A DNA stretch of 64,000 nt. It comes from Eledone cirrhosa (lineage: Eukaryota). Location: assembly GCA_964016885.1 (NCBI GenBank), contig OZ024760.1:33976001-34040000 (forward strand), read 5' to 3'. The position numbers and the translations under genes are program-made. Under the pieces are notes generated by a model that was not told the DNA's origin, made no database searches, and saw only the letters and a list, made by a program, of their open reading frames with translations. Shown one piece after another: positions 1 to 64,000 of this stretch (position 1 is its first letter; each line of letters opens with the position of its first letter).

Positions 1-3000
1 ATGAAACGAAATTTCATTTCCCACTCTTAGTACGGCTGTTACTTAAATATAAGTATGTACACATACATACATATATGTATACAGACGTACAGTAGTATGT
101 ATATATATATACATACACGCACAGATATATATATGTACGTATGGATTTACCGAACATTTATTATAATGCCCGGTGTGTTTGTAAACAAACATGCCGTATT
201 AAGCCGTAGTGTCTAGCAACCACCGTTGCTCGTTTGTTCAACACTGACAAAGGAACGCTGTACTAGTTTCAAGCTTATTAACTATCGTCAGCAACGTATA
301 CCTTCCTGCCAGATTGTTGAACATATATACTTACCTTATGCATATTAACGACTGAGTAGCCCAATTTGCATATCGAGTGGGTTAATCGGCCGGGTGCAGC
401 GAAAACGATAAACGGAAAAAAATGAAACGAAATTTCATTTCCCACTCTTAGTACGGCTGTTACTTAAATATAAGTATGTACACATACATACATATATGTA
501 TACAGACGTACAGTAGTATGTATATATATATACATACATGCACACATATATATATATGTACGTATGGATTCACCGAACATTTATTATAATGCTCGGTGTA
601 TTTGTAAACAAACATCCCGTATTAAGCCGTAGTGTCTAGCAACCACCGTTTGTTCAACACTCACAAAGGAACGCTGTACTAGTTTCAAGCTTATTAGCTA
701 TCGTCAGCAACGTATACCTTCCTGCCAGATTGTTGAACGTATATACTTACCTTATGCATATTAACGGCTGAGTAGCCCAATTTTCATATCGAGTGGGTTA
801 ATCGGCCGGGTGCACCGAAAACGATAAACGGAAAAAAATGAAACGAAATTTCATTTCCCACGCTTAGTACGGCTGTTACTTAAATATAAGTATGTACACG
901 TACATACATATATGTATACAGACGTACAGTAGTATGTATATATATATACATACATGCACACATATATATATGTACGTATGGATTCACCGAACATTTATTA
1001 TAATGCTCGGTGTATTTGTAAACAAACATCCCGTATTAAGCCGTAGTGTCTAGCAACCACCGTTTGTTCAAAACTAACAACGGAACGCTGTACTAGATTC
1101 AAGCTTATTAGCTATCGTCAGCAACGTATACCATCCTGCCAGATTGTTGAACATAAATACTTACCTTATGCATATCAACGGCTGAGTAGCCCAATTTGCA
1201 TATCGAGTGGGTAATCGGTCGGGTGCACCGAAAACGATAAACGGAAAAAAATGAAACGAAATTTCATTTCCCACGCTTAGTACGGCTGTTACTTAAATAT
1301 AAGTATGTACACGTACATACATATATGTATACAGACGTACAGTAGTATGTATATATATATACATACATGCACACATATATATATGTACGTATGGATTCAC
1401 CAAACATTTATTATAATGCTCGGTGTGTTTGTAAACAAACATCCCATATTAAGCCGTAGTGTCTAGCAACCACCGTTGCTCGTTTGTTCAACACTGACAA
1501 AGGAACGCTGTACTAGTTTCAAGCTTATTAACTATCGTCAGCAACGTATACCTTCCTGCCAGATTGTTGAACGTATATACTTACCTTATGCATATTAACG
1601 GCTGAGTAGCCCAATTTGCATATCGAGTGGGTTAATCGGCCGGGTGCACCGAAAACGATAAACGGACAAAAATGAAACGAAATTTCATTTCCCACGCTTA
1701 GTGCGGCTGTTACTTAAATATAAGTATGCACACGTACATACATATATGTATACAGACGTACAGTAGTATGTATATATATATACATACATGCACACATATA
1801 TATATGTACGTATGGATTCACCGAACATTTATTATAATGCTCGGTGTGTTTGTAAACAAACATCCCATATTAAGCCGTAGTGTCTAGCAACCACAGTTGC
1901 TCGTTTGTTCAACACTGACAAAGGAACGCTGTACTAGTTTCAAGCTTATTAGCTATCGTCAGCAACGTATACCTTCCTGCCAGATTGTTGAACATATATA
2001 CTTACCTTATGCATATTAACGGCTGAGTAGCCCAATTTGCATATCGAGTGGGTTAATCGGCCGGGTGCAGCGAAAACGATAAACGGAAAAAAATGAAACG
2101 AAATTTCATTTCCCACTCTTAGTACGGCTGTTACTTAAATATAAGTATGTACACATACATACATATATGTATACAGACGTACAGTAGTATGTATATATAT
2201 ATATACATACATGCACACATATATATATGTACGTATGGATTAACCAACCATTTATTATAATGCTCGGTGTGTTTGTAAACAATCATGCCGTATTAAGCCG
2301 TAGTGTCTAGCAACCACCGTTGCTCGTTTGTTCAACACTGACAAAGGAACGCTGTACTAGTTTGAAGTTTATTAGCTATCGTCAGCAACGTATACCTTCC
2401 TGCCAGATTGTTGAACGTATATACTTACCTTATGCATATTAACGGCTGAGTTGCCCAATTTGCATATCGAGTGGGTTAATCGGCCGGGTGCACCGAAAAC
2501 GATAAACGGAAAAAAATGAAACGAAATTTCATTTCCCACGCTTAGTACGGCTGTTACTTAAATATAAGTATGTACACGTACATACATATATGTATACAGA
2601 CGTACAGTAGTATGTATATATATATACATACCTGCACACATATATATATGTACGTATGGATTCACCGAACATTTATTATAATGCTCGGTGTATTTGTAAA
2701 CAAACATCCCATATTAAGCCGTAGTGTCTAGCAACCACCGTTTGTTCAACACTGACAAAGGAACGCTGTACTAGATTCAAGCTTATTAGCTATCGTCAGC
2801 AACGTATACCTTCCTGCCAGATTGTTGAACATAAATACTTACCTTATGCATATTAACGGCTGAGTAGCCCAATTTGCATATCGAGTGGGTTAATCGGTCG
2901 GGTGCACCGAAAACGATAAACGGAAAAAAATGAAACGAAATTTCATTTCCCACGCTTAGTACGGCTGTTACTTAAATATAAGTATGTACACGTACATACA

Positions 3001-5198
3001 TATATTGTATACAGACGTACAGTAGTATGTATATATATATACATACATGCACATATATATATATGTACGTATGGATTCACCAAACATTTATTATAATGCT
3101 CGTTGTGTTTGTAAACAAACATCCCATATTAAGCCGTAGTGTCTAGCAACCACCGTTGCTCGTTTGTTCAACACTGACAAAGGAACGCTGTACTAGTTTC
3201 AAGCTTATTAGCTATCGTCAGCAACGTATACCTTCCTGCCAGATTGTTGAACATATATACTTACCTTATGCATATTAACGGCTGAGTAGCCCAATTTGCA
3301 TATCGAGTGGGTTAATCGGCCGGGTGCAGCGAAAACGATAAACGGAAAAAAATGAAACGAAATTTCATTTCCCACTCTTAGTACGGCTGTTACTTAAATA
3401 TAAGTATGTACACATACATACATATATGTATACAGACGTACAGTAGTATGTATATATATATACATGCATGCACAGATATATATATGTACGTATGGATTTA
3501 CCGAACATTTATTATAATGCTCGGTGTGTTTGTAAACAAACATGCCGTATTAAGCCGTAGTGTCTAGCAACCACCGTTGCTCGTTTGTTCAACACTGACA
3601 AAGGAACGCTGTACTAGTTTCAAGCTTATTAACTATCGTCAGCAACGTATACCTTCCTGCCAGATTGTTGAACATATATACTTACCTTATGCATATTAAC
3701 GGCTGAGTAGCCCAATTTGCATATCGAGTGGGTTAATCGGCCTGCAGCGAAAACGATAAACGGAAAAAAATGAAACAAATTTCATTTCCCACTCTTAGTA
3801 CGGCTGTTACTTAAATATAAGTATGTACACATACATACATATATGTATACAGACGTACAGTAGTATGTATATATATATACATACATGCACACATATATAT
3901 ATATATATGTACGTATGGATTCACCGAACATTTATTATAATGCTCGGTGTATTTGTAAACAAACATCCCGTATTAAGCCGTAGTGTCTAGCAACCACCGT
4001 TTGTTCAACACTGACAAAGGAACGCTGTACTAGTTTCAAGCTTATTAGCTATCGTCAGCAACGTATACCTTCCTGCCAGATTGTTGAACATAAATACTTA
4101 CCTTATGCATATTAACGGCTGAGTAGCCCAATTTGCATATCGAGTGGGTTAATCGGCCGGGTGCACCGAAAACGATAAACGGAAAAAAATGCAACGAAAT
4201 TTCATTTCCCACGCTTAGTACGGCTGTTACTTAAATATAAGTATGTACACGTACATACATATATGTATACAGACGTACAGTAGTATGTATATATATATAC
4301 ATACATGCACACATATATATATGTACGTATGGATTTACCGAACATTTATTATAATGCTCGGTGTGTTTGTAAACAAACATGCCGTATTAAGCCGTAGTGT
4401 CTAGCAACCACCGTTGCTCGTTTGTTCAACACTGACAAAGGAACGCTGTACTAGTTTCAAGCTTATTAACTATCGTCAGCAACGTATACCTTCCTGCCAG
4501 ATTGTTGAACGTATATACTTACCTTATGCATATTAATAGCTGACTAGCCCAATTTGCATATCGAGTGGGTTAATCGGCCGGGTGCACCGAAAACGATAAA
4601 CGGAAAAAAATGAAACGAAATTTCATTTCCCACGCTTAGTACGGCTGTTACTTAAATATAAGTATGTACACGTACATACATATATGTATACAGACGTACA
4701 GTAGTATGTATATATATATATATACATGCACACATATATATATGTATGTATGGATTCACCGAACATTTATTATAATGCTCGGTGTGTTTGTAAACAAACA
4801 TCCCGTATTAAGCCGTAGTGTCTAGCAACCACCGTTTGTTCAACACTGACAAAGGAACGCTGTACTAGTTTCAAGCTTATTAGCTATCGTCAGCAACGTA
4901 TACCTTCCTGCCAGATTGTTGAACATAAATACTTACCTTATGCATATTAACGGCTGAGTAGCCCAATTTGCATATCGAGTGGGTTAATCGGCCGGGTGCA
5001 CCGAAAACGATAAACGGAAAAAAATGAAACGAAATTTCATTTCCCACGCTTAGTACGGCTGTTACTTAAATATAAGTATGTACACGTACATACATATATG
5101 TATACAGACGTACAGTAGTATGTATATATATATACATACATGCACACATATATATATGTACGTATGGATTCACCGAACATTTATTATAATGTTCGGTG
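1..5198 (-). repeat. Tandem array of ~420-bp non-coding monomers (12 full + 1 partial, runs off window start), one hammerhead per monomer; retrozyme-like satellite
   Basis: Monomer start 'atgaaacgaaatttcatttccca' recurs at about 1, 422, 838, 1251, 1672, 2093, 2516, 2930, 3352, 3770, 4189, 4610 and 5024. Copies are near-identical and carry no meaningful ORF. Confidence 0.95.
255..297 (-). ncRNA. Minimal type I hammerhead ribozyme (first of 12 array copies)
   Basis: Minus-strand array consensus ACGTTG-CTGACGA-TAGCT AATA AGCTT-GAA-ACTAGT-A-CAGCGT (this copy has TAGTT in stem II). Stem I ACGTTG/CAGCGT, stem II AGCT/AGCT, palindromic stem III ACTAGT, GUA cleavage triplet. Confidence 0.85.
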
Positions 5199-5832
<634 letters not shown>

Positions 5833-48971: not shown

Positions 48972-49156
48972 TTGTCGTCACATGGTACCATGGGCCCAGC
49001 ACTATGTGTCAATAATTGTCACAAGTGTAGTGTTTGTACCAGAGTTTTCAAGTCGCTGGCTGGACTAAAAAGTCACACTCGTTCAGCGCATCAGAAAGGG
49101 TTCTCCTACATGGATATAAAGTAGTGGCCGTACTCGAAAACGAGTTGGCAGCCACC
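48971..49156 (+). mobile_element. 3' end of RTE/BovB-type LINE (second copy)
   Basis: Same C2H2 finger and UTR as 42905-43090. Confidence 0.65.
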
Positions 49157-49165
49157 ATATGTGTG

Positions 49166-49202
<37 letters not shown>

Positions 49203-49323
49203 ACGTATGTGTATGTGTATATATACGTGTGTGTGTGTGTATGTGTATGTGTATATATATATGTATGTGTATGTGTGTATATGTATGTATTTATATGTGT
49301 GTGTGTGTATGTGTGTATGTGTG

Positions 49324-49466
<143 letters not shown>

Positions 49467-49498
49467 ACACGGGTGTGTATGATTGTGTATAGAAGATT

Positions 49499-49858
49499 AT
49501 ATTAATAAAAGGAATTCCAACGTTGTCTGATTTACTAGTTTTATTTACAATCCTTTAAAATTTATAATGGTATTATAATGAAATAGTATGGTAGAATATT
49601 AAATGTTAAGTGTTAATTTAACAAGTACTTTCATGCTTTCGCAATCTTCAGGTTCATAATGTGTGGTGAGAGTCAAGTTTGCAATGTTTGACTGTCACCA
49701 CACATTATGAACCTGAAGATTGCGAAAGCATGAATGTACTTGTTCAATTAACACTTAACATTTAATATTCTACCATACTATTTCATTCTAATACCATTAT
49801 AAATTTTAAAGGATTGTAAATAAAACGAGTAAATCAGACAAAGTTGGAATTCCTTTTA

Positions 49859-49864
<6 letters not shown>
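49499..49864. mobile_element. Head-to-head inverted mini-element with a hammerhead in each arm (49620-49654 minus; 49708-49746 plus)
   Basis: TGAAC-CTGAAGA-TTGC GAAA GCAT-GAA-(A/T)GTACT-T-GTTCA; arms ~170 bp with a ~27-bp spacer. Confidence 0.8.
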
Positions 49865-49903
<39 letters not shown>

Positions 49904-49966
49904 ATATATATGTATGTATGTGTATATGTATGTATGTATGTATGTATGTGTGTATGTCTGTGTACG

Positions 49967-49990
<24 letters not shown>

Positions 49991-49997
<7 letters not shown>

Positions 49998-50218
49998 ATA
50001 CTTTGGGAGGGTCATGTTGCCAATAAGAAACACACGCACCAGTTGCTTTCACTTCAATTTATTATAATAAATTTATAATAAATTTATTATAATAAATTGA
50101 AGTGAAAGCAACTGGTGCGTGTGTTTCTTATTGGCAACATGACCCTCCCAAAGTATAACAATATCGGTTTCAACACACGATTTCAGATAAAGAATCTTGC
50201 TAAACAAATTCAGAAACG

Positions 50219-50221
<3 letters not shown>
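49991..50221. mobile_element. Palindromic pair of PLE tails (12-kb family) between (TA)n tracts
   Basis: 49991-50070 is the reverse complement of 50085-50164; the right arm extends ~57 bp further. Confidence 0.85.
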
Positions 50222-50288
<67 letters not shown>

Positions 50289-50340
50289 ATATATGTGTGT
50301 ATATATATATGTGTGTATGTATGTATATTATGTATGTGTG

Positions 50341-50402
<62 letters not shown>

Positions 50403-50411
<9 letters not shown>

Positions 50412-52376
50412 GATCGAGTATCGAAAAATCGGCGCACGAGTTCACGATAAACAAAATTCGAAATGGGCGGCAGAGGGCTCAATAATTCAGATGAATCAGA
50501 GCTATAACTATCGTTAAAATACCGTCACATATAGAACAAGTCTACAATCAACCATACGATAAAAAATCGATAATAGAAGATTCGGGACAAACAGATAAAA
50601 AATATCAATAAAACAATACGTCAATAATTTAAATGAATGTAAAATCATACCCGGACCCACTAGACAGGTGTTAAATCTAGCTTCATGGGTTTCTGTAAAT
50701 CCTTAGACTGTACTCTATCAGCTCACATATAAATATAAAAGCCTACTAGAGTAAGCGGAACGGAGTTTACTTTCTCAACGAGCTTTTTTCCTGGCGGGAG
50801 AGGGGCTAACTACCAGTGAAAAACGCACATGGCATTAGACAAGGGAGATAACCTCTATATCCGCGAAAACAATTCGAGGGAATGTGGAAATACACATATC
50901 GAATAAGAGTGCTCAATAGACATGTTAAAATAAAACAAAAGCTATTCATCACTCAATAGAATCGACAAAAAATGAGCAATAAAATTAACTGGTGGATAGC
51001 TATGTCCAGAGCTAAATATATTAGAAAGATCGAGTATCGAAAAATCGGCGCACGAGTTCACGATAAACAAAATTCGAAATGAGCGGCAGAGGGCTCAATA
51101 ATTCAGATGAATCAGAGCTATAACTATCGTTAAAATACCGTCACATATAGAACAAGTCTACAATCAACCATACGATAAAAAATCGATAATAGAAGATTCG
51201 GGACAAACAGATAAAAAATATCAATAAAACAATACGTCAATAATTTAAATGAATGTAAAATCATACCCGGACCCACTAGACAGGTGTTAAATCTAGCTTC
51301 ATGGGTTTCTGTAAATCCTTAGACTGTACTCTATCAGCTCACATATAAATATAAAAGCCTACTAGAGTAAGCGGAACGGAGTTTACTTTCTCAACGAGCT
51401 TTTTTCCTGGCGGGAGAGGGGCTAACTACCAGTGAAAAACGCACATGGCATTAGACAAGGGAGATAACCTCTATATCCGCGAAAACAATTCGAGGGAATG
51501 TGGAAATACACATATCGAATAAGAGTGCTCAATAGACATGTTAAAATAAAACAAAAGCTATTCATCACTCAATAGAATCGACAAAAAATGAGCAATAAAA
51601 TTAACTGGTGGATAGCTATGTCCAGAGCTAAATATATTAGAAAGATCGAGTATCGAAAAATCGGCGCACGAGTTCACGATAAACAAAATTCGAAATGAGC
51701 GGCAGAGGGCTCAATAATTCAGATGAATCAGAGCTATAACTATCGTTAAAATACCGTCACATATAGAACAAGTCTACAATCAACCATACGATAAAAAATC
51801 GATAATAGAAGATTCGGGACAAACAGATAAAAAATATCAATAAAACAATACGTCAATAATTTAAATGAATGTAAAATCATACCCGGACTCACTAGACAGG
51901 TGTTAAATCTAGCTTCATGGGTTTCTGTAAATCCTTAGACTGTACTCTATCAGCTCACATATAAATATAAAAGCCTACTAGAGTAAGCGGAACGGAGTTT
52001 ACTTTCTCAACGAGCTTTTTTCCTGGCGGGAGAGGGGCTAACTACCAATGAAAAACGCACATGGCATTAGACAAGGGAGATAACCTCTATATCCGCGAAA
52101 AACAATTCGAGGGAATGTGGAAATACACATATCGAATAAGAGTGCTCAATAGACATGTTAAAATAAAACAAAAGCTATTCATCACTCAATAGAATCGACA
52201 AAAAATGAGCAATAAAATTAACTGGTGGATAGCTATGTCCAGAGCTAAATATATTAGAAAGATCGAGTATCGAAAAATCGGCGCACGAGTTCACGATAAA
52301 CAAAATTCGAAATGAGCGGCAGAGGGCTCAATAATTCAGATGAATCAGAGCTATAACTATCGTTAAAATACCGTCA
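50403..52376 (-). repeat. 616-bp tandem array (3.2 copies), non-coding, one large hammerhead per monomer
   Basis: 'tattagaaagatcgagtatcg' recurs at about 50403, 51019, 51635 and 52252; near-identical copies; (TA)n on both flanks. Confidence 0.95.
50649..50783 (-). ncRNA. Type I hammerhead with U3:A8 core (copies at 51265-51399 and 51881-52015)
   Basis: Minus strand GCTCG-TTGAGAA-A GTAAA C TCC..TACTCTA..TAGAGTA..GGA TTTAC A-GAA-ACCCA tgaag CTAGA..TCTAG TGGGT-C-CGGGT. Confidence 0.75.
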
Positions 52377-52432
52377 TATATATATATGTGTGTGTATAAA
52401 TATATATATGTATATATATATATATATATAGA

Positions 52433-52615
52433 GATTGGTCAATTTTGAACCAATCTAAAAAATATGCTAGAGGAACAAGAAAATGCACGCTCTGCATAAA
52501 TGAAACATTTTGGATATTGCAAAATCTCAAATCACCAAAGACCTGCCTGAACACAAAGACGGAAATTTTTACCAGTTGCCCACACATGAAATCACACCTG
52601 CTTTCCAGCTCATAA
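52433..52615 (+). pseudogene. C-terminus of a PLE endonuclease (not in ORF track), followed by a long 3' region to ~54070
   Basis: Manual translation DWSILNQSKKYARGTRKCTLCINETFWILQNLKSPKTCLNTKTEIFTSCPHMKSHLLSSS*. Confidence 0.8.
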
Positions 52616-53899
52616 ACTTAACACACTTTCAGACACTTATCCTCCATAAACTCTGATTATTCTTTTTAATTACCCTTTCTGACTTACTTTCATTCTTATC
52701 CTTGTCGATAATTTCATTTATTTTCACTTTTATTTATTTTTTATTTATTTTTTATTTATTTTTACTTCACCCCCCCCCCCCCTGTTATTCTCCGATCCAC
52801 TTCCTATTTTCTTATTTTTTACTTCCCCTTCTTTTACTTCCCTTTTTCCTCTACTAACTGATTATACTTGTCTTTTGTGTTTTTCAATCCAGATATATTT
52901 CTCATTTTTATTTTTATTTTATTTTTGCGCAGCCTATCTTACAATTTTATATTTGTATTTATTTATCCACATTTCAATATGGCTGAACACCTTAATGTGT
53001 GTATAATTTTTTTATATATGTACATGAGTGACTACGTATGTGCGCGCGCGTGCGTGTATGTATGTGTGTATATATATATATATATGTACGTGTATGTATG
53101 CGTGCGTGTACTTGTGTTTGTGTGTGTGCGTGTGTGTATATTATGCGTATGTGTAAGTGTCTTTATATCCGTGTTTTTGATATTTCGATTTTATATTTTT
53201 TTGTTTGTTTCTTGCTTTTTTCTTCTCCCCCCCCCCTTCCCTCTTCTGTTATTTACCCAGTTTCATACATGGGCATGCAAACAGGTTTATATGCGCTAGT
53301 ATAAGTATGTGTGTGTGTGTGTGTCTGTATGTACGTATCGAACGCATGGAAATGTAAGCGCGTGTGTGTATATAAGCATAATTATTTTTACATTTCTTTT
53401 ATGAGACACGCGTGTCTGTGTATGTATGTACCCCCGCTTTTTTTGTTTTCTTTAATTTTTCTTTCTATCTTGTCTTTCTAATTTATCGTTACTATATTTT
53501 TATAAATATATCGTAATAGATACTTTTCTTTTATTTATTATACTCTCTTCATCTCCTTACTTTCCGTATCTAAATGTACGAGTGTCCAGCCGTTTTTTAA
53601 GCGCGCGACTTTATTTTCTTATTTTTACGAAGTAACCATTTCCGTCTGCATAATACAGACATATAGATACATTTGCCCTAAACTTTTATTTTTATAATTA
53701 CGCACACTTTCTAACCATACATTTACACGTGCACATATACATATATGCACATCTATGAGCGTATATACATACACATACACACACCTAACTATTTTTCTTG
53801 ATAGATTTTTATATATTTCAATTTCTATTTCATTTATCTATATATTTTTTTGATTTTCTTGATGTGTTTTTCTAAGTATTTGCCCATGTTTTATATTGC

Positions 53900-53967
53900 C
53901 TCGTATGACGAACGAATGAAGTCGTTTATTTCGTATTCGCCTCATTCGGGAAACCTCTGGTAATGAG
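53900..53967 (+). ncRNA. Hammerhead with a C3-to-A core change (probably inactive)
   Basis: CTCGT-ATGACGA-A CGAATGA..TCATTCG G-GAA-ACC TCT GGT-A-ATGAG. Confidence 0.6.
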
Positions 53968-54071
53968 ATAATAATATTGTATTGATTTTATACATTAAAT
54001 TTTGCTCTGATACTGACATAGAGCACTCTTCATTTCTATGACCTTTTCTGTTTCTAACTGAAATTTCAATA

Positions 54072-54808
<737 letters not shown>

Positions 54809-54834
54809 TATATATATATATATATATATATATT

Positions 54835-54926
<92 letters not shown>

Positions 54927-55231
54927 GTTCAAGAGTAACCAATCTTAAAGAGAGAGATGGAGATAGGAGAGGAGATATGAGAGGAGAGATTGGTGAATTA
55001 GTTGGAAGCCAAAGCGTAAAGGCATGTGCTCAATGTGCAATATGCAGTAGAAAGCAGCTAGGTGGCAGTGTTCATGCAGAAGTTAGGTGCGCAGAGCTGG
55101 AAATATTCATTAGTTAAGCAAAACAAGACCACAAATTTCACAAGGAAGACATTTTTAAACGATTGTCAACATATTTTAGTTTGATGTAAGGAATGTAGAG
55201 AATAATAATAATAATAATAATATTAATAATA

Positions 55232-55721: not shown

Positions 55722-56089
55722 TATAATTAATATAAATTAATATAAATTAAAATAATGAGAGAATGTTACATAATATAATGTTCCATATATTGGTTTCACT
55801 ATGGTGTCTTGGTTGCATCAGTTGTCCGCCATAATCAAGCAGTATTCATCTGTCGAGGCTGCATTGTGTGAGATCTGCCTATGGGTCCCGTATGTATGTA
55901 TGTATATATATATGTGTGTGTGTGTGTAAACATGCACATATATATACATTGGCACACTTTCACATATAAATAAACACACGTAAAGTTGTACATATATACA
56001 CATATACATACATAAATATATAAATATTTTAATTTTTATGTTGTTTTTGTTGTGGCAGTAATCGGTAGAGCGTCAGATAACATGTTCAC

Positions 56090-59000
56090 AGCCAAACCGT
56101 CCTGGATCTGGGGGGGGGGGGGGAGTGGCCGTGTTGTTCCGGAGAAGTCTGGATCTCGAGATACGAGATACGTTGGTACTGGACGTGACCAGCGGAGGAC
56201 AAACTTTCAGGCTGGTGGCCGCCTATGCCCCAAGAGGAGCAGGACAGCCTGAATTCTTCCGGCGTCTGGAGACCTTTCTTGGAACGTCCCGCTCTCTAGT
56301 GTTAGTGGGCGACTGGAACGGGATCTTAGATGCACGCTGGGACTGTTTGGGATTAGCGGATAGGGGAGGAGGATGTAAAAGCCTCACAAACCTACTCAGG
56401 CGTTTTGAACTGTCGGACAGGTACCGATTTGATTTCCGAATGTGCCAATGTGGACTTGGAAAAAGCGCATCGGGTCATCTAGATAGAGTATTTTGTAGGG
56501 AAATAGATAGGTCTAGCATAGGCTGTCCAGCTACACAGACCACAAATTCGTGATCTGTGTGGTTGACCTAGATAGGCTTCATAGACAAAGACCCGGCTAC
56601 TGGAAGCTAAACGTGTCATTAACAGCGCGCAAGGCCTATAGAGACCGTATTAGCGAACTTGTTAAGCGGGCGTTGACAGGGGCCATCGTCAACAACAAAT
56701 AGTGGTTTGCTCTGAAAAGGGCGATTAGAATAGAGTCCATTAGGTTTAGTAAGGCTTTAGCAATAGAGAAAAATAGAGCAGAGGGAGAACTAGTTAGAAA
56801 ATTAGACGAGGCGCTTAGCAAAGTATTCGCTACCGACGTACTTGCGGCGAAATTGGCCCTTGACCAATTCTTCAATGCAAAGCACGAAGGCTACGTTGTC
56901 AGAGCTAGGGTGCGTGCTCTCAGACACGAGGGGACGAAAGCCGTTCAATGGGCCCGAGTGGCGGAGGCGCATCGTGGCAACAAATCCACGATCCGGTCTT
57001 TGGTGGACCACGACGGGCGCATGCTACTCGATCCCGAGCAAATATGTGAAGCTTTTCAGCGACACTTCCCTCAGCTGTTCGGGGGCAGCGGCGGGCCGGA
57101 TCGAGGGATGGACTTTAGTGTCTACTTCGACGGACTGCCGTGGCTCTCGGCCACTGAGGCGGAGTGTTGCGAAAAGCCGATAACAGCCGCTGAAGTACGG
57201 GAGGCAATGACTGACTGCACAAGGGGTAAATCGCCTGGTTTGGATGGTCTGCCCTATGAACTTTACGTACAGATGCCAGACCTGTTCGGAGGCCTCTTGT
57301 CGGGCGTCTACTGCCACTGGCAACAGAACGGGAGAATTCCCAGCTCTGTGAGCCGAGGAGCGGTGGCGCTGCTGAGAAAGGATCCGAATAAGTGGGATAA
57401 CATAGATAATTTCAGGCCCATTACTCTGCTAAACACAGAGTTCAAGATTTTGGCCAAGGTGCTAGCAAAGAGGTTGGCGCTTGTCTTTGGTGGTCTGGTG
57501 GGAGAGGCGCAGACATGCGCCATTCCAAACAGATCCATTCACGACAACCTCCACCTCATGCGATACATCGCGGAGAGGGTAGCTAGGGAACCTGGGACGG
57601 GTGGGTCTTTGATCAATTTAGATCAGTCGAAAGCTTTCGATAGGGTCGACTATAGTTATCTGGCGGTAGTCCTGAGGGCGGCTGGCTTTGGGCCCGTCTT
57701 CAGAGGCTGGATCGCTGCCATGCACAGCGACATCTGCTCTGTGGTGAGAGTAAACGGTCACCTTTTCGGAACCGTTCAACATCATACGCACGGTCTGCCA
57801 AGGACGTCTCCTCTCGTCCATCTTGTACGTATTGACTCTCGAGCCATTACTGCACAAACTGGAGACGTTGAGGGGGGTCCCGCGCGAACTAGGATGCGGA
57901 AGATCCGTGTCAGCATATGCAGACGATGTTACCGTAGTGGTGTCGAACGCCAAACACATCGAGGCGATCGGCAATACACTAAGAGAATACGAAGCGGTGA
58001 CAGGAGCAATGATCAACCAGGAAGAGTCGGTGGGCCTGCAGATCGGCACCTGGAGAGGCAAGTCCATGCCGTCCAACAGCGTCGTCGGGCGCTGGATGAA
58101 CGGACCGGTTAAATTGCTAGGGGTCTGGTTCGGTCCGGACTTTCAGACGGACAAAAACTGAGACGAGGTGACGAGCAGGGTGGCTTCTCTCACCCAGAAA
58201 TGGGCGGAAAGGAAGCTAGCCCTGAAAGGTCGAGCGGAGGTGGCTAACGCGTAAATCGCATCCGTCATCTACTACCGCCTGACCGTCGTGCCTTGTCCTA
58301 AGCCTCACCTGACTGCGCTGGAGCGTTTGCTCTTTCGCTTTTTGTGGAAGGGACGCGCTCCGATGGTCAGGCGGTCCATCTGCTGTCAACACCCGCTACG
58401 TGGAGGGCTGGGCATGCCGTGGCTGATGATGCGCAGACACGCGCTCAGGCTACGACATTTCCACCTCTTCCTCGACGGTGATCAAGTTTGGTCGCCGTTT
58501 GCTAGACGCGTCTTTCCCCAGCTCGTCTCCTTGACGGAGCTGCAGTCCTGGGTCAAGCGAAGTCCGAGAGGGAGTGCTTGGAGACTGGAATGTCTTCAGG
58601 CGCTCACAGCCCTCGACCAATCGGGCAATGTGATCGGTGGAACTCCACCTTGGCGTTCTATAGAGGATTAGTGGAGGGGAAGAGCGACGACGTACTTAGG
58701 GAAACTCTAGCCGTCGACGAAAATCAACTAGCCAATCTCTTCGGAAGAACTTTCGGGCCGGGGCCTATGGACAACTTCCAGAAATCCATGGCCTGGCAGT
58801 ACTACCGAGGAGCTTTGCCAACTCGGGATAAACTCTACAGGCATGGAGGTGCCGTCAGCCGGGCATGTCCAAGATGCGCGCAGGGCGACGAAACCGTCCT
58901 GCATGCACTCGTCCAGTGTCCGAGCATTGCTGACTTGTGGGTTTATGTTGAACACCTGCTGTCGCGTGTAGGACGGATCCGGCTATCAGCTGAGTCCATC

Positions 59001-59493
59001 GTGAGGATTGCCCCGCCACCTTCCTTTCGCTGGGAAGGGCAGGCAATTTTTATCTGTCTGGTGGCCATGGGGAAAGAGATAGTATGGTGGACGTGTTTGA
59101 AAGGGCTGAAGACGAGCACTTACTTCTTCGGTGATGCCCTGATTAACTTTTTCAAATTTCATTTAAAAAGGAAAATCAGGTGAGAGAGGCAAGAATGGCC
59201 TGAGTGAATGGGCCTACTCTGAGTATGTGCCTGTAAATTAAAGGTGGAAAACTGAGAGAGGGCACTTGCCCTGGTGGTCAGGGTCACCGTCGCTTTTTTT
59301 AATGGGCTTTCTCCACGAATGTCCCTCGGAAGTCTCCCCCCTATTGGTGAATTTTTCGTCGTTTCTTTTTTTGTTACATCCTGTTTTTTTTTGTTTTTTT
59401 TACACGCAGAAATGCCCATTTGTACCGTCCTGTATTGTCCTGTACTGTCCTTAATGTCTACTTTGTGTAAACCCTTGTGGTTAATAAAGAAAG

Positions 59494-59539
<46 letters not shown>

Positions 59540-59540
59540 G
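56090..59540 (+). mobile_element. 5'-truncated, frameshifted Tx1/L1-clade LINE ORF2 (APE endonuclease, RT, zf-RVT) with AATAAA and (ATT)n tail
   Basis: 'AYAP', 'LVGDWN', 'GKSPGLDGLPYELY', 'NFRPITLLNTEFKILAK', 'LDQSKAFDRV', 'AYADD' and 'CPRC..DETVLHALVQC', spread over several frames with stops. Confidence 0.93.
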
Positions 59541-62500
59541 ATCTAATCGGATGTTTTTTGCTCACTCCCAGTAAGTCGCTTTATTTGCCTGTTATAATTA
59601 TTTGTTGTTAAATTTTTCTTGTTGTGTAAGGGATATAAGCCCTTGGATGTTGCCCTGTGAAGGGGAAAGTATAATATTTGGGCCTCTTGGCCCAAATATT
59701 TAAACATTTTACTTTTAAAAATTATTTGAAAAAGAAAAATGGCTAACCACGCCCCCCCCCCCCCCCCCCCAGCAATATGTCTGCTGTCAAGTGACAACAG
59801 CGTAAAAGTTGAGAGGAGGGTTAGTGAAATTCAGACAACAAACACCACCACAAACAACGTGAACAAAGACAACAACACTGAGAACACTAATTTTGAAAAT
59901 GTTACCACACCAATTACAACAATAACAGCGTCAACCAAAATACAGAAAACATAAAAAAAAATGACAACAAATGCAACAACGATATTAACACCACTAACAA
60001 GAAAATAAACAACGACAACAACAACAACAACAACAACGGTGGCACAAAAAACACAACCAACTACAACAGTGATAACAACAACAATACCAACAACACAGTT
60101 TGTAGCAGTAGCAACAGCAACAACAAGACCAGTAGCAGCAGTAGCGGCAGTAATAATGGTGCCGCTGAGAAAGGGGCCACTTCTTTCGCAGGTGTGGCCC
60201 GAAATATAGAAACAGTGCTAGTCACGGAGGAGGAGATGGCAGTCGCAAGAGCCATGGTGGACAAGGAATGAAAATAGAGTTTCCCTGAAACCTCCACCCG
60301 ATTTCTTCAAAGACCAGCAGCTGCGCACGGTGACTTACCGCACCGTAAGCAAGATGTCACATCGGGTGGAGAGAGCCACAGAGGCTCAAATCCCAAAGGC
60401 CTTGGGGTGCGTCTGGGCGCGCAAAACCCACATCACCTGAGGCAAAAAGTACGCCACAGTGGACGTACTTTTCGCGAAGTCTCACTCTTTGGAAACCCTA
60501 AAGAGTGAGGAGATAGTCTCGGTGCCCTCCTACTGCGAGACCCAGGCCCCGCCTGACTAGCCCATACCTTGGCTGGCCGCGTCTGTACTGGCTGGAATCG
60601 AGGAGAAGACCATCATACTGCAAAGACAGAGAATGGGAAGAGAGAACTGGTCAGGAATAGGTATGCAAATGCTAATACAGACTGACCAGGAGTGCATCGA
60701 GGCCATCCCAGACATCATAGACCTCGAAGGACTCCAGCTCCCTATAAGCGTGGAAGGAAGGCGCCCAAAGTGCTATATCTGTGGGTAGTAGTGGAGCTCA
60801 TACCCCTCCCAGGCACCACGGAATCCGACATGGAGTATGAGGTGGGAGGGAAGTGGCAAACGGTCTGCCACAAAGAACAAAAAAGGAAAAACCCCTTAGC
60901 TTCACCCTCTAAAAGCGAAGGCAAACAAAGTGGGGTAAAGGCTGCAAGGAGACATGCATCAACACCACCACCATCGCCATCACCACCTCAAGCATAACCA
61001 CAAACAACAACCACACCTCCACCAGCATCACCAAAAACACCAACATCGCAAACACAACAAAACACACACACCCAACAGCAACAAGAAAACAGCAACAAAA
61101 TCACCCCCTCCCCCCAAAAAGTACACAGGCCATAAACATGGCAAATAAAGAACTCTTACAACATATAAAGAAGCACACAGACATCACAGAAAAAAACTAC
61201 TACACCCCACCAACACCAAGAACTCTCCTGACATCATTGAAATCAAAATAGAACAGTACTAACTTTTAAAACAAAAATTCCCCAACGCAGTTGGAGACTT
61301 CAGAGGGTCGGTTACCAAGAGGATATACACCGACATCCGCTTGGAAACACCCATGACCAGCCAAAGGGACGGTTCTACTGTCCCTTCACCACGCGATCAA
61401 GGTAAGTGATCCTTTCTCACTTACTCCGTTTCTCATCCAACATGGCCGTACTTAGAATAGGCAGTATAAATGTACGTGGCCTGGGGTCACCTTGGAAGCA
61501 GGGTCACCTGCTCAACGACCTCAGGTCACTAGACATAGATGTGGTGGCCATCAGCGAGATCAGAATTTCCGAAGCACGAGTCTTCGCACCGATCTTCGGC
61601 GGCTAGGATGTATACGCATCTCCCAGCCGTCCAGGATCGGGGGGAGGGGGGTTGCCGTGCTTTTTCGAAGAGGCTTGGATCTCGCCATACGGGCCATCTT
61701 CCTGGACCCAGAAGGTAAGACGGTGGTGCTGGACATGACCGGCAGCGAAGGCAATGCTTTCAGGCTAGTAGCCGTCTACGCCCCAACAGGGGCAGGACGG
61801 CCAGATTTCTTCAGACGTCTAGAGACCTTTCTTGGAACGTTCCGCTCGTTAGTGTTAGTGGGCGACTGGAACGGTATCTTAGATGCACGCTGGGATTATG
61901 TGGGGCTAGTAGATAGGGTAGGAGGAAAGAAAAGCCTCAACAACCTGCTCAGACGTTTTGAATTGTCTGACAGGTGTAGACTGGATTATCCGAATGTGCC
62001 AATGTGGACATGGGCAAACCGCATCGGGTCATCCTGATCGTATTTAGATAGGGCGTTCTGTAGGGAAACAGTTAAGGCTAGTGTAGGTTGTCCACAATTT
62101 AAAGTAGTCGACTACACGGACCACAAATTTGTGATCTGTCAAGTTGACTTAGATAGACTTAGATAGACTTAGATAGACAAGGGCCCGGCTACTGGATGCT
62201 GAACGCGTCGTTCCCGGCGCGCAAAGCTTACAGAGACCGGATTAGCGAATTAGTTAAGCGTGCGTTGACGGGTGCGATCGTCAACAACAGGTGGTACCCT
62301 GAAAAGGGCTATTAGAGTAGAATCGATAAGGTTTAGCAAAGTAGTAGTGATAGAGGAAAATGGAGTAGAGGGAGAGTTAGTTAGAAAGCTGGAAGAGGCG
62401 TTTAGGACAGGCATCGCAACCGACGTGCTTACGGCGAGATTGGCACTCGACCAATTCTTCAACGCAAAGCAAGAAGGCTGCGTTGTCAGAGCTAGAGCGC

Positions 62501-64000
62501 ATGCTCTAAGACACGAGGGGACGAAAGCCGTTCAATGGGCCCGGGTGGTGGAGGCGCGACGTGGAAACAAGTCCACAATTCGGTCTTTTCCTGATCAAAA
62601 TGGGCGCATGCTGCTCGAACCCGAGCAGATGTGTGCGGCTTTTCAACAGCACTTGTTCGGGAGCGGCGGCGGACCGGATCGGAGTAGGGCTTCGGTGCAT
62701 ACCTCGACGGACTGCTACGGCTCTCGACGACCACAGCGCAGTGCTGCGAAAAGCCGATAACAGCAGGTGAAATACGGGAAGCGATGTCTGACTGCACGAG
62801 GGGTAAATCGCCAGGTTTGGATGGTCTGCCCTACGAGCTTATGCGTATATGCCAGACTTCGGCGACCTCTTGGCAGATGTCTACTGCAACTGGCAGCTGA
62901 ACGGGAGCATTCCCAGTTTTGTGAGCCGGGGAGCGGTGGCGCTGCTGAGAAAAGACCCGAACAAGGGGGACATTATAGACAACTTCAGTCCCATAACTCT
63001 ACTAAACGTAGAGTTTAAGATTTTGGCCAAGGTGTTAGCAAAGAGATTGGCGCTTGTCATCGGTGATATGGTGGGAGAGGCGCAGACATGCGCCATTCCG
63101 GACAGATCCATCCACGACAACCTCCATCTCATGCGATACATCATAGAGAGGGTTGTTAAGGAACCTGGCACGGGTGGGGCCCTGATCAATTTGGATCAAT
63201 CTAAAGCATTTGATAGGGTCGACCATCGGTACCTGGCTGCGGTCCTCGAGGCGGCCGGCTTCGGGCCCATTTTTAGGGGCTGGATCGCTGCGATGCACAG
63301 CAACATCTGCTCGATTGTGAGGGTGAATGGTCACCTGTCGCAGCCTTTCAGCATCATGCGCTCGGTCCGCCAGGGTTGCCCCCTCTCGTCCCTCTTGTAC
63401 GTACTGGCCCTCGAGCCGTTACTGCACAAATTGGAGACGATGAGAAGGTCCCACGCGAACTGGGATGCGGAAGATCCGTGTCAGCTTACGCCAACGACGT
63501 CACCGTGGTGGTGCCGCGCACCAAACACGTCCAGATGCTCAGCACTACACCAAGAGAATACGAAGCGGTGACAGGTGCAAAGATAAACCAGGAAAAGTCG
63601 GTGGGCTTGCAACTCAACACCTGGAGAGACAAGTCCATGCTGTCCGACAGCGTCGTGGGGCACTGGACGGAAGGACAGGTTAAATTGCTCGGGTTCTGGT
63701 TCGGTCCGGACCTTCACATGGAGAAAAACTGGAACGAGGTGACGAACAGCGTGGCCTCCCTCACCCATAAATGGGCCGAGAGGAGGCTGTCTCTGAAAGG
63801 TCGGGCGGAGGTGGCGGATGCGTACATAGCGTCCGTCATCTGTTACCGCCTGGCCGTCGTCCCTTGCCCCCGCCCAACTCTGACCAAAAAATGGAGATAC
63901 GCGCAGGGCGACGAAACCGTCCTGCACGCATTCGTTCAGTGCCCGAGTATTGCTGACTTATTGAGCTATGTCGAACAGCTGCTGTCGCGTGTAGGACGGA
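59541..64000 (+). mobile_element. Second, longer decayed Tx1/L1-clade LINE: 5' UTR, broken ORF1 (~59739-61410), ORF2 from 61442, internal deletion near 63890; runs off window
   Basis: ORF1 knuckle start 'VEGRRPKCYICG'. ORF2 'MAVLRIGSINVRGL..DVVAISE', 'VYAP', 'GDWN', 'KAFDRV', 'SVRQGCPLS'. Confidence 0.92.

Follow-up and report, generated by a model that had tools for sequence, protein, structure and literature searches.

A young 616-bp retrozyme-like family in Eledone cirrhosa whose cDNA ends gather at the predicted cut of a non-canonical hammerhead

Introduction

How do retrozymes enter animal genomes, and do the hammerheads associated with Penelope elements (PLEs) cut in vivo? Both questions are raised by a short tandem array in a window of 64,000 nucleotides from Eledone cirrhosa (the whole stretch of DNA analysed: assembly GCA_964016885.1, contig OZ024760.1, positions 33,976,001 to 34,040,000 of the forward strand). 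The initial annotation took this array for a recently inserted multimeric cDNA of a self-cleaving RNA of about 616 nt, and named tandem solo pLTRs of an unseen PLE as the alternative. Here I will argue that the first reading is probably right: the array would be a recent insertion whose RNA is likely self-cut by a non-canonical hammerhead and likely reverse-transcribed into (TA)n by a PLE enzyme, probably one of the Hydra clade.

The array and its family

The array is laid out as follows.

50405..52376, minus strand: complete insertion of non-coding units, whose RNA reads along the minus strand from a 5'-truncated end at 52376 to the fixed RNA-3' end at 50405
50405..51020, minus strand: unit 1, 616 bp
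51021..51636, minus strand: unit 2, 616 bp
51637..52253, minus strand: unit 3, 617 bp, with a stem III mismatch at 51889
52254..52376, minus strand: partial unit 4, 123 bp, the cDNA's 5'-truncated end
50221..50404, no strand: (TA)n target tract at the fixed end
51016..51021, minus strand: putative internal reverse transcription start, where UAUAU, matching the (TA)n target, comes after the fixed end in tandem RNA

The insertion thus holds 3.2 head-to-tail units (616+616+617+123 bp, starting at 50405, 51021, 51637 and 52254) that are >99% identical, the full units differing from each other at 1-4 positions in a unit-by-unit comparison, with (TA)n tracts adjoining the array on both sides; an array start placed at 50403 rather than 50405 differs by TA microhomology. 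With a GC content of 33% and a longest ATG-initiated frame of 47 aa, the units are indeed the near-identical non-coding repeats within (TA)n that had been described, and the claim that they are unrelated to the 420-bp family agrees with a comparison to the 421-bp array in the window, which gave no similarity (best E 0.43). A tRNA gene search of 49000-55000 found none, and an open frame of ~60 aa that one subfamily appeared by eye to have on the plus strand was dropped because others have stops in it.

When the 616-bp unit was compared to the 3.0-Gb genome, the best 40 of 1,668 candidates held 111 matches, the full-length ones among them 98-100% identical and spread over many contigs. In 30 loci that were fetched, every insertion with an end in view starts at unit position 1 (one at 3), this fixed end adjoins (TA)n wherever it is in view, the opposite end falls anywhere, and one locus (L010) carries an inverted, 5'-truncated copy. 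A fixed 3' end combined with 5' truncation is the pattern left by target-primed reverse transcription, and the polarity of the ends makes the minus strand, the one carrying the ribozyme fold, the template; as 249 nt separate the predicted cut from the fixed end downstream of it, priming is internal to the RNA. Fixed 3' end, 5' truncation, inverted 5' copies and a microsatellite target are together what PLE-type insertion leaves, inverted 5' copies being a hallmark of PLEs (PMC8557442), and the dispersed, mobile copies appear to lack LTR architecture, as retrozymes of this kind do.

The family extends well beyond the window's own subfamily, hereafter A: subfamilies B (581-bp unit) and C (about 610-bp unit) were found in the flanks of array loci, and there are many further divergent ones. 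A stem III/cut-site pattern has 5,329 matches in the genome compared to 5 for its control, and the TA-anchored, reverse-strand, non-duplicated fixed ends number 1,027 (A/C) and 339 (B), from which I estimate ~2,000 insertions for A/C and ~700 for B. The longest arrays reach 16 or more units, and several dispersed ones have 13-16 or more. Two arrays of 15-16 units are internally identical, one identical monomer is common to four long arrays, variants within arrays are mostly private (26 vs 6), and one stem III variant is common to copy 3 of the window and a C7 copy. The window array is, in short, one insertion of a young, genome-wide family. Long homogeneous arrays, together with the patterned internal variant in the array at C1:44.27M, might also come from a satellite amplified at the DNA level, by unequal crossover or a Helitron-like rolling circle, with the fold incidental; but dispersed short insertions with one fixed and one random end, a polarity matching the RNA fold, and the covariation and cDNA ends described below leave that origin scarcely credible.

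A hammerhead-like fold, non-canonical at the core

Each full unit carries one copy of the fold.

50649..50783, minus strand: type I hammerhead-like fold, copy 1, with the cut predicted to fall between 50654 and 50653
51265..51399, minus strand: copy 2, with the same sequence as copy 1 over this interval; predicted cut 51270/51269
51881..52015, minus strand: copy 3 (G16.3>A), predicted cut 51886/51885

In copy 1, read on the minus strand, stem I is formed by GCUCG (50779-50783) and CGGGU (50649-50653), the core UUGAGAAA occupies 50771-50778 (U3 U4 G5 A6 G7 A8 A9), stem II spans 76 nt (50695-50770) with A.A at 10.1/11.1, an extra A at 50694 precedes GAAA (50690-50693), stem III has two parts (CCC/GGG plus CUAGA/UCUAG), and the cleavage site is GUC at 50656-50654, so that C17 is 50654. 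The minus-strand type I fold, with its stem I, stem II, two-part stem III and GUC site, is therefore present in each unit as the initial annotation had it, and so is the single stem III mismatch of the third copy, a C>T change at 51889 with which stem I is lost in the computed fold. The three-way fold is both the minimum-energy and the centroid structure of minus-strand 50645-50790, although energy alone gives weak support because 8/200 shuffles fold equally well (z = -1.95).

Three helices surround a core and a UH cleavage site, as in any hammerhead; the canonical CUGANGA core with C3-G8 is replaced mostly by U3:A8 and in some subfamilies by U3.G8 or C3.A8, and where a Watson-Crick pair would stand at 10.1-11.1 there is A.A or C.A, followed by G-C. 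An Rfam search of the array gave no match at the gathering score and no hammerhead at E<=10. Judged by its sequence, the fold is a type I hammerhead that is non-canonical on these two core features. An alternative core within stem II (CUGAUAGA) was rejected, being missing from subfamily B and others. U3-A8 is a known natural hammerhead variant (PMC3088659), as had been claimed, and has already been described in Penelope-associated hammerheads, with ~1,300 hits in S. mansoni (PMC4209133). The A.A mismatch, for its part, need not be disabling as was feared, mismatches at 10.1/11.1 being common in hammerheads of Hydra-clade PLEs (9 of the 15 Hydra-clade rows examined in File S2, PMC8557442).

Covariation among homologs had been set beforehand as a test of the fold, and it was found: across 20 divergent copies, 95.5% of cells are paired and 7 of 17 pairs are changed on both sides (5 in stem II, 1 in stem I and 1 in stem III), a level that 0/500 shuffles equalled, in a control that ignores the relatedness of the copies, while slid controls pair at <=54%. 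The invariance of stem III, of the stem I 3' letters and of the extra A is not evidence, because the search patterns partly fixed them. The most variable core position is N7, where all four bases are seen, and variation at N7 occurs in real hammerheads; no aligned copy departs from U4, G5 and A6, although UGA was required in one of the searches that supplied these copies. A further subfamily (L178), first met without the patterns and numbering 173 pattern matches, has stem I as ACCUG/CAGGU and stem III often as CUC/GAG, with the core UUGAUAAC in 21/24 parsed copies and the A before GAAAC in 28/30. The covariation thus argues for a conserved fold. The 3-8 core pair is not strictly kept among subfamilies, with U3.G8 in subfamily C and C3.A8 in an amplified subfamily (L128, L131 and L160), and two copies (L117 and L130) have G9; these changes count against a uniformly active core.

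cDNA ends at the predicted cut

If the RNA were cut before it is copied, some cDNAs should end where the ribozyme cuts, and a family with one fixed and one variable end allows this to be read from the genome. On contig C1, 90 insertions were chosen by their fixed end alone, covering 53 distinct A/C places (all of those listed) and 37 of 48 B places; 4 loci with an end beyond the fetched DNA gave no end, leaving 86 that were mapped. Of these, 23 have their 5' end <=25 nt 3' of the predicted cut (25 raw, from which L224 and L235 were taken as alignment over-extension), where 4.2 would be expected under a uniform distribution and 6.0 under a TA-weighted one (P 1.5e-8); the remaining 26-nt windows, those within stems II and III included, show no enrichment. 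The pooled pile-up leans on subfamilies C (14/33 raw, 12 after correction) and B (8/36 raw) and is weak for the window's own subfamily alone, where 3/17 ends near the cut are not significant by themselves (TA-weighted P 0.10).

Fine mapping was then extended to the whole genome, taking every (TA)n-joined end from position -3 to +13 relative to the cut, which gave 28 A/C and 12 B loci; of these 40 ends, 11 coincide with the scissile bond (2 from A, 5 from C and 4 from B; P 1.4e-5 for one of 17 positions), the window's own subfamily contributing 2 of its about 15 fine-mapped ends. The scissile-bond position has no TA microhomology, there are zero ends at +1 or -2, and most of the remaining fine-mapped ends sit at A or TA microhomologies; L179 likewise ends exactly at the cut. 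The strongest end signal belongs to subfamily C, with its U3.G8 core, assuming that the RNAs of truncated copies had the core of the longer copies. On the other side of the ledger, cDNAs crossed the predicted cut 116 times, so that ~1 passage in 7-8 ends there, and cleavage would then be partial or reversed.

Would a fold that no longer cuts give the same picture, kept as a protein-binding structure at which the reverse transcriptase stalls? The core changes in amplified subfamilies (U3.G8, C3.A8 and G9) and the lack of a Watson-Crick pair at 10.1/11.1 speak for it, as do the majority of ends, which lie 4-16 nt before the cut and off the bond, and the observation that hammerhead mutants leave insertion by a PLE in vitro unaffected (PMC11167929). 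However, a stalled enzyme would be expected to stop either at about -5, the base of stem I, or at +1, once the unpaired C17 has been copied, whereas the 11 ends lie on the bond itself with none at +1, which favours run-off from a cut 5' end over a stall; neither the stem II nor the stem III windows are enriched; and U4, G5 and A6 stay invariant while N7 varies, within the limit set by the UGA search. I regard a dead fold as improbable, and the pile-up of 5' ends as likely the genomic footprint of cleavage, left by a ribozyme RNA that cuts itself in the cell. Together with the dispersed 98-100% identical copies, the fixed 3' end, the 5' truncation and the covariation, these ends support the earlier description of the array as a recently inserted multimeric cDNA.

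A downstream segment that may switch the ribozyme off

Each unit also contains a segment able to compete for stem I.

50583..50589, minus strand: UGUCCCG, conserved rival partner of the stem I 3' strand, pairing with 50650-50653; in each unit

This segment is predicted to act as an off-switch, or else as the 5'-terminal hairpin of the cut RNA. A blocking segment 10-65 nt past the cut reads CCCG in 89/104 distinct stretches of the families with CGGGU, and in the family with CAGGU the downstream letters are ACCUG in 26/30 copies, which at the sequence level is a compensatory change bridging loops of very different lengths. In computed folds, the probability of stem I drops from 0.8 in the isolated fold to 0.01 in the circular monomer, and in about 6-7 of 9 simulated elongations stem I yields once the downstream sequence has been added, with no clear switch in L036 (a stem I mutant copy) and L309. 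On this covariation and these models, the downstream segment likely switches the ribozyme off.

A Hydra-like Penelope element as the candidate helper

The units encode no enzyme of their own that could copy them, and a candidate lies right beside the array.

52431..54075, plus strand: separate 5'-truncated Hydra-like Penelope element, outside the array, member of the candidate helper group
52433-52615, plus strand: endonuclease C-terminus of this PLE, then 3' UTR
53895-53975, plus strand: its decayed hammerhead
near 54004, plus strand: its hairpin
50477..50502, minus strand: GCUCUG...GAGC hairpin of the array unit, conserved across the aligned subfamilies and lying 72 nt ahead of the fixed 3' end

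The family of the neighbouring PLE is a young one, having 33,464 candidates in the genome (95-100% identity among 150 scored), with open frames that reach 719 aa and contain RWK, DKT and CxCx5C motifs and a C-terminal endonuclease; a Pfam search of the protein gave no family, and it is by these motifs and the (TA)n target, which Hydra-clade PLEs share (PMC8557442), that the family fits the Hydra clade. Its 3' end runs from a type I hammerhead (with A.G at 10.1/11.1) through an AU-rich stretch and a GCUCUG/AUAGAGCACU hairpin to an end in (TA)n, an order of motifs that recurs in the 616-bp family. Hydra-like PLEs of the Eledone cirrhosa genome carry a similar hairpin ~45-50 nt before their 3' end; a related hairpin pattern has 9,926 matches compared to 1, at the 3' ends of similar elements, and 4/12 parsed hammerheads of hairpin-bearing elements have a 10.1/11.1 mismatch. 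The GCUCUG...GAGC hairpin of the array is thus a candidate recognition signal for the reverse transcriptase. Alignment of the 616-bp family to one Hydra-like pLTR is no better than chance (scores as high came from 92 and 119 of 500 shuffles), the 5' ends show no enrichment of any PLE family next to them (a second family lies at 6/86 vs 2/30 flanks, and this second family also inserts in (TA)n), and a profile search of the fetched loci gave no helper. I take the Hydra-like PLE to be the best helper candidate, not an identification, and the 616-bp family to be likely mobilised by such elements.

Could the units instead be solo pLTRs in tandem, left behind by an autonomous PLE in which exactly that pLTR is still present? 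Their ends and target are of PLE type, their motif order (hammerhead, AU-rich stretch, GCUCUG hairpin, 3' end) is that of Hydra-like pLTRs, and retrozymes have been proposed to derive from pLTRs (bioRxiv 10.64898/2026.07.22.740005). In a genome sample, however, the next monomer follows at 80 of 82 unit boundaries, TA at one and unrelated sequence at one, and this reading is disfavoured because none continues into an ORF; the check that had been proposed, whether the unit ever adjoins a PLE ORF, thus turned up no case among the boundaries sampled. Among the matches listed, moreover, TA tracts or other sequence part PLE ORFs from divergent copies, and weak profile hits in the fetched loci resembled fragments of family copies. 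Such an origin for the units is very improbable.

A proposed path from cut RNA to array

A cycle can be proposed in which the array would be transcribed, the hammerhead would fold during transcription and cut after GUC, as the cDNA ends suggest, and the segment 10-65 nt further on would pair with the stem I 3' strand and likely turn the ribozyme off. The cut monomers would likely be ligated into circles, as in other retrozymes; a PLE endonuclease would nick (TA)n, and the reverse transcriptase would prime inside the RNA at the AU-rich site ~249 nt downstream of the cut. On a cut RNA, copying would run off at the cut and leave copies of <=249 bp, and on a circle or an uncut multimer it would continue to give arrays of up to 16 or more units. 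Copying of the downstream segment would also free stem I ahead of the enzyme, and cleavage may, more speculatively, be coupled to reverse transcription.

I lean towards the circle by analogy with the coral, mussel and axolotl retrozymes, for which circles have been shown (PMC7229834). The ribozyme might be active and no circle ever form, the long arrays coming from partly uncut multimers or from template jumping between cut linear monomers, and the 116 passages across the cut, the stem III variant common to copy 3 and the C7 copy, and the finding that the main substrate of a PLE in vitro is unprocessed RNA (PMC11167929) are all compatible with that. The homogeneity of the arrays cannot prove the circle, because four long arrays share one monomer and a homogeneous master would fit equally. 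Yet the copying of multimers with 5' truncation can only shorten them, and dispersed arrays of 13-16 or more units exist, in which, furthermore, variants are mostly private; copying without a circle is a possibility I hold to be real but unlikely. It departs from the proposed cycle at the circle-ligation step only.

With the circle retained, a more ambitious picture can be drawn, of a retrozyme lineage with a class of hammerhead that descriptors miss and that cleaves in vivo in spite of its U3:A8, U3.G8 or C3.A8 core, its 10.1/11.1 mismatch and its 76-nt stem II, a conserved RNA switch unzipped by a Hydra-clade reverse transcriptase, and a coupling of cleavage to copying that sets array length. 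Taken as a whole it is doubtful, but if true, the genome would preserve every stage of the retrozyme cycle, from internal priming through rolling-circle copying to a termination set by the ribozyme.

Known systems and what this family adds

At the level of sequence, the 616-bp family fits the definition of a metazoan non-LTR retrozyme, having the same AT-rich, non-coding repeats joined head to tail, each with a single type I hammerhead, the same high copy number, absence of LTRs and co-occurrence with PLEs, and the same proposed PLE mobilisation (PMC7229834; bioRxiv 10.64898/2026.07.22.740005, which argues for a PLE origin of retrozymes). The unit was thought to be larger than is typical; this is so against the 150-450 bp of PMC7229834 but not against the 51-972 bp range of the bioRxiv survey, and neither the unit size nor the U3:A8 core is new. 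It differs in its large, non-canonical ribozyme missed by Rfam, in its conserved blocking segment, where in most metazoan retrozyme circles the ribozyme is predicted to stay unblocked (PMC7229834), and in its defined internal 3' end and (TA)n targeting, which the sections of these two sources drawn on here do not describe for metazoan retrozymes. As a point against the cleavage proposed here, the bioRxiv survey also reports that 8/9 predicted Xenopus retrozymes gave no cleavage in vitro.

Hydra-clade PLEs share with the family the (TA)n target, the fixed 3' end, 5' truncation, inverted 5' copies and a type I hammerhead close to the 3' end in which 10.1/11.1 is often mismatched (PMC8557442), but they have C3:G8, short stems and an ORF where the 616-bp family has U3:A8, a 76-nt stem II and no ORF. 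The U3:A8 hammerheads of S. mansoni Cercyon PLEs and other natural variants (PMC4209133, PMC3088659) show the same U3-A8 core covariation, the same extra nucleotide between 9 and 10.1, a G-C at the base of stem II and a short stem I. The S. mansoni-type motifs are described as minimal, needing dimers and lacking a stable stem III, whereas in the 616-bp family stem III is complete and in two parts, an extra A precedes G12, and some subfamilies carry U3.G8 or C3.A8.

The closest parallel for the priming step is the Poseidon element PAc of Anolis, where internal initiation was shown in vitro, downstream of the hammerhead and on AT-rich targets (PMC11167929); PAc is, however, autonomous, its ribozyme needs protein and a search for RNA ends at its cut gave none, unlike the 616-bp family with its cDNA ends there. 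For the off-switch, the precedent lies in plant LTR retrozymes and hammerhead viroids, of similar size (600-1000 nt), in which, according to PMC7229834, the ribozyme of the monomeric circle is blocked by a complementary segment. Those RNAs differ in having type III hammerheads, and LTRs, PBS/PPT and Gypsy enzymes, or RNA-RNA replication.

In the open-licence papers searched, I found no description of the 616-bp family or of cDNA ends at a retrozyme cut. The family offers thousands of young insertions with two readable ends, one giving the internal priming site and the other a peak at the predicted bond, and end mapping of this kind provides a way to assay ribozyme activity from the genome alone, in other families too. 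It also widens the set of tolerated hammerhead cores and suggests that surveys built on canonical descriptors undercount such elements. Lastly, it names both an RNA and a candidate enzyme, the intact 719-aa Hydra-like protein, for reconstitution.

Mobile elements flanking the array

The 616-bp retrozyme-type array shares the window with several mobile elements, which are as follows:

49500-49860 and 49993-50220: ends of other Penelope-like elements (PLEs), surviving as two inverted-repeat remnants
52431-54075, + strand: Hydra-clade-like Penelope element, with an intact relative at host locus L303:1396-3555
56000-64000, + strand: two non-LTR retrotransposons, both decayed and probably L1/Tx1-like, in which frames for an endonuclease and a reverse transcriptase can be seen

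The Hydra-clade-like Penelope family next to the array numbers 33,464 candidates in the host genome, its intact frames reach 719 aa, and the protein returned no Pfam match; PMC8557442 describes few Hydra families from animals other than cnidarians. To the left of the array, the remnant at 49500-49860 contains a minimal CUGAAGA...GAAA motif, and that at 49993-50220 belongs to a second PLE family as its 3' end; the ORF of this family was seen in locus L113.

A shared 3' hairpin and a second pairing

A GCUCUG/AUAGAGCA hairpin, located ~45 nt before (TA)n, is common to ~9,900 PLE-type 3' ends in the host genome (L338-L367, G000:C1), and these ends fall into many subfamilies, several of them arranged as inverted pairs, and carry type I hammerheads in which loop III is 3 nt and the 10.1/11.1 pairing is variable. 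By eye, the 616-bp unit RNA displays a second GCUC...GAGCACUCUU pairing directly 3' of the priming site (window 51016 to ~50905, - strand, and equivalents), replaced in subfamily B by UCUC/GAGA; the Hydra-like pLTR appears to hold AGCUC...GAGCACUCUU at the equivalent place, a likeness likewise noted by eye, to which alignment gave no significance.

Variants and ends within the family

One stem III change, from GGGUC to GAGUC, is found repeatedly: in two copies of subfamily A, the window array's own, and in B copies (window 51889; G000:C7:39508564; L104; G000:C2:124163285), reflecting either a hotspot or a shared variant. One B copy (G000:C4:274297070) ends exactly on the predicted cut, followed by an A-run, possibly added untemplated at run-off, and then (TA)n. 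At L179 and L259, almost no TA spacer, or none at all, separates the 5' ends from where another abundant element has its 3' end; the joins reflect template jumping or, alternatively, insertion at the edge of that element.

Other tandem repeats

A 421-bp tandem array (window 1-5720) has no sequence relationship with the 616-bp unit; its 12.4 copies are followed by a partial one in inverted orientation that ends in (TA)n, which gives the whole a PLE-like layout. Finally, a 312-bp tandem repeat at L306:900-1900, with a canonical CUGAUGA...GAAAC motif in every unit, is probably another retrozyme-like family.
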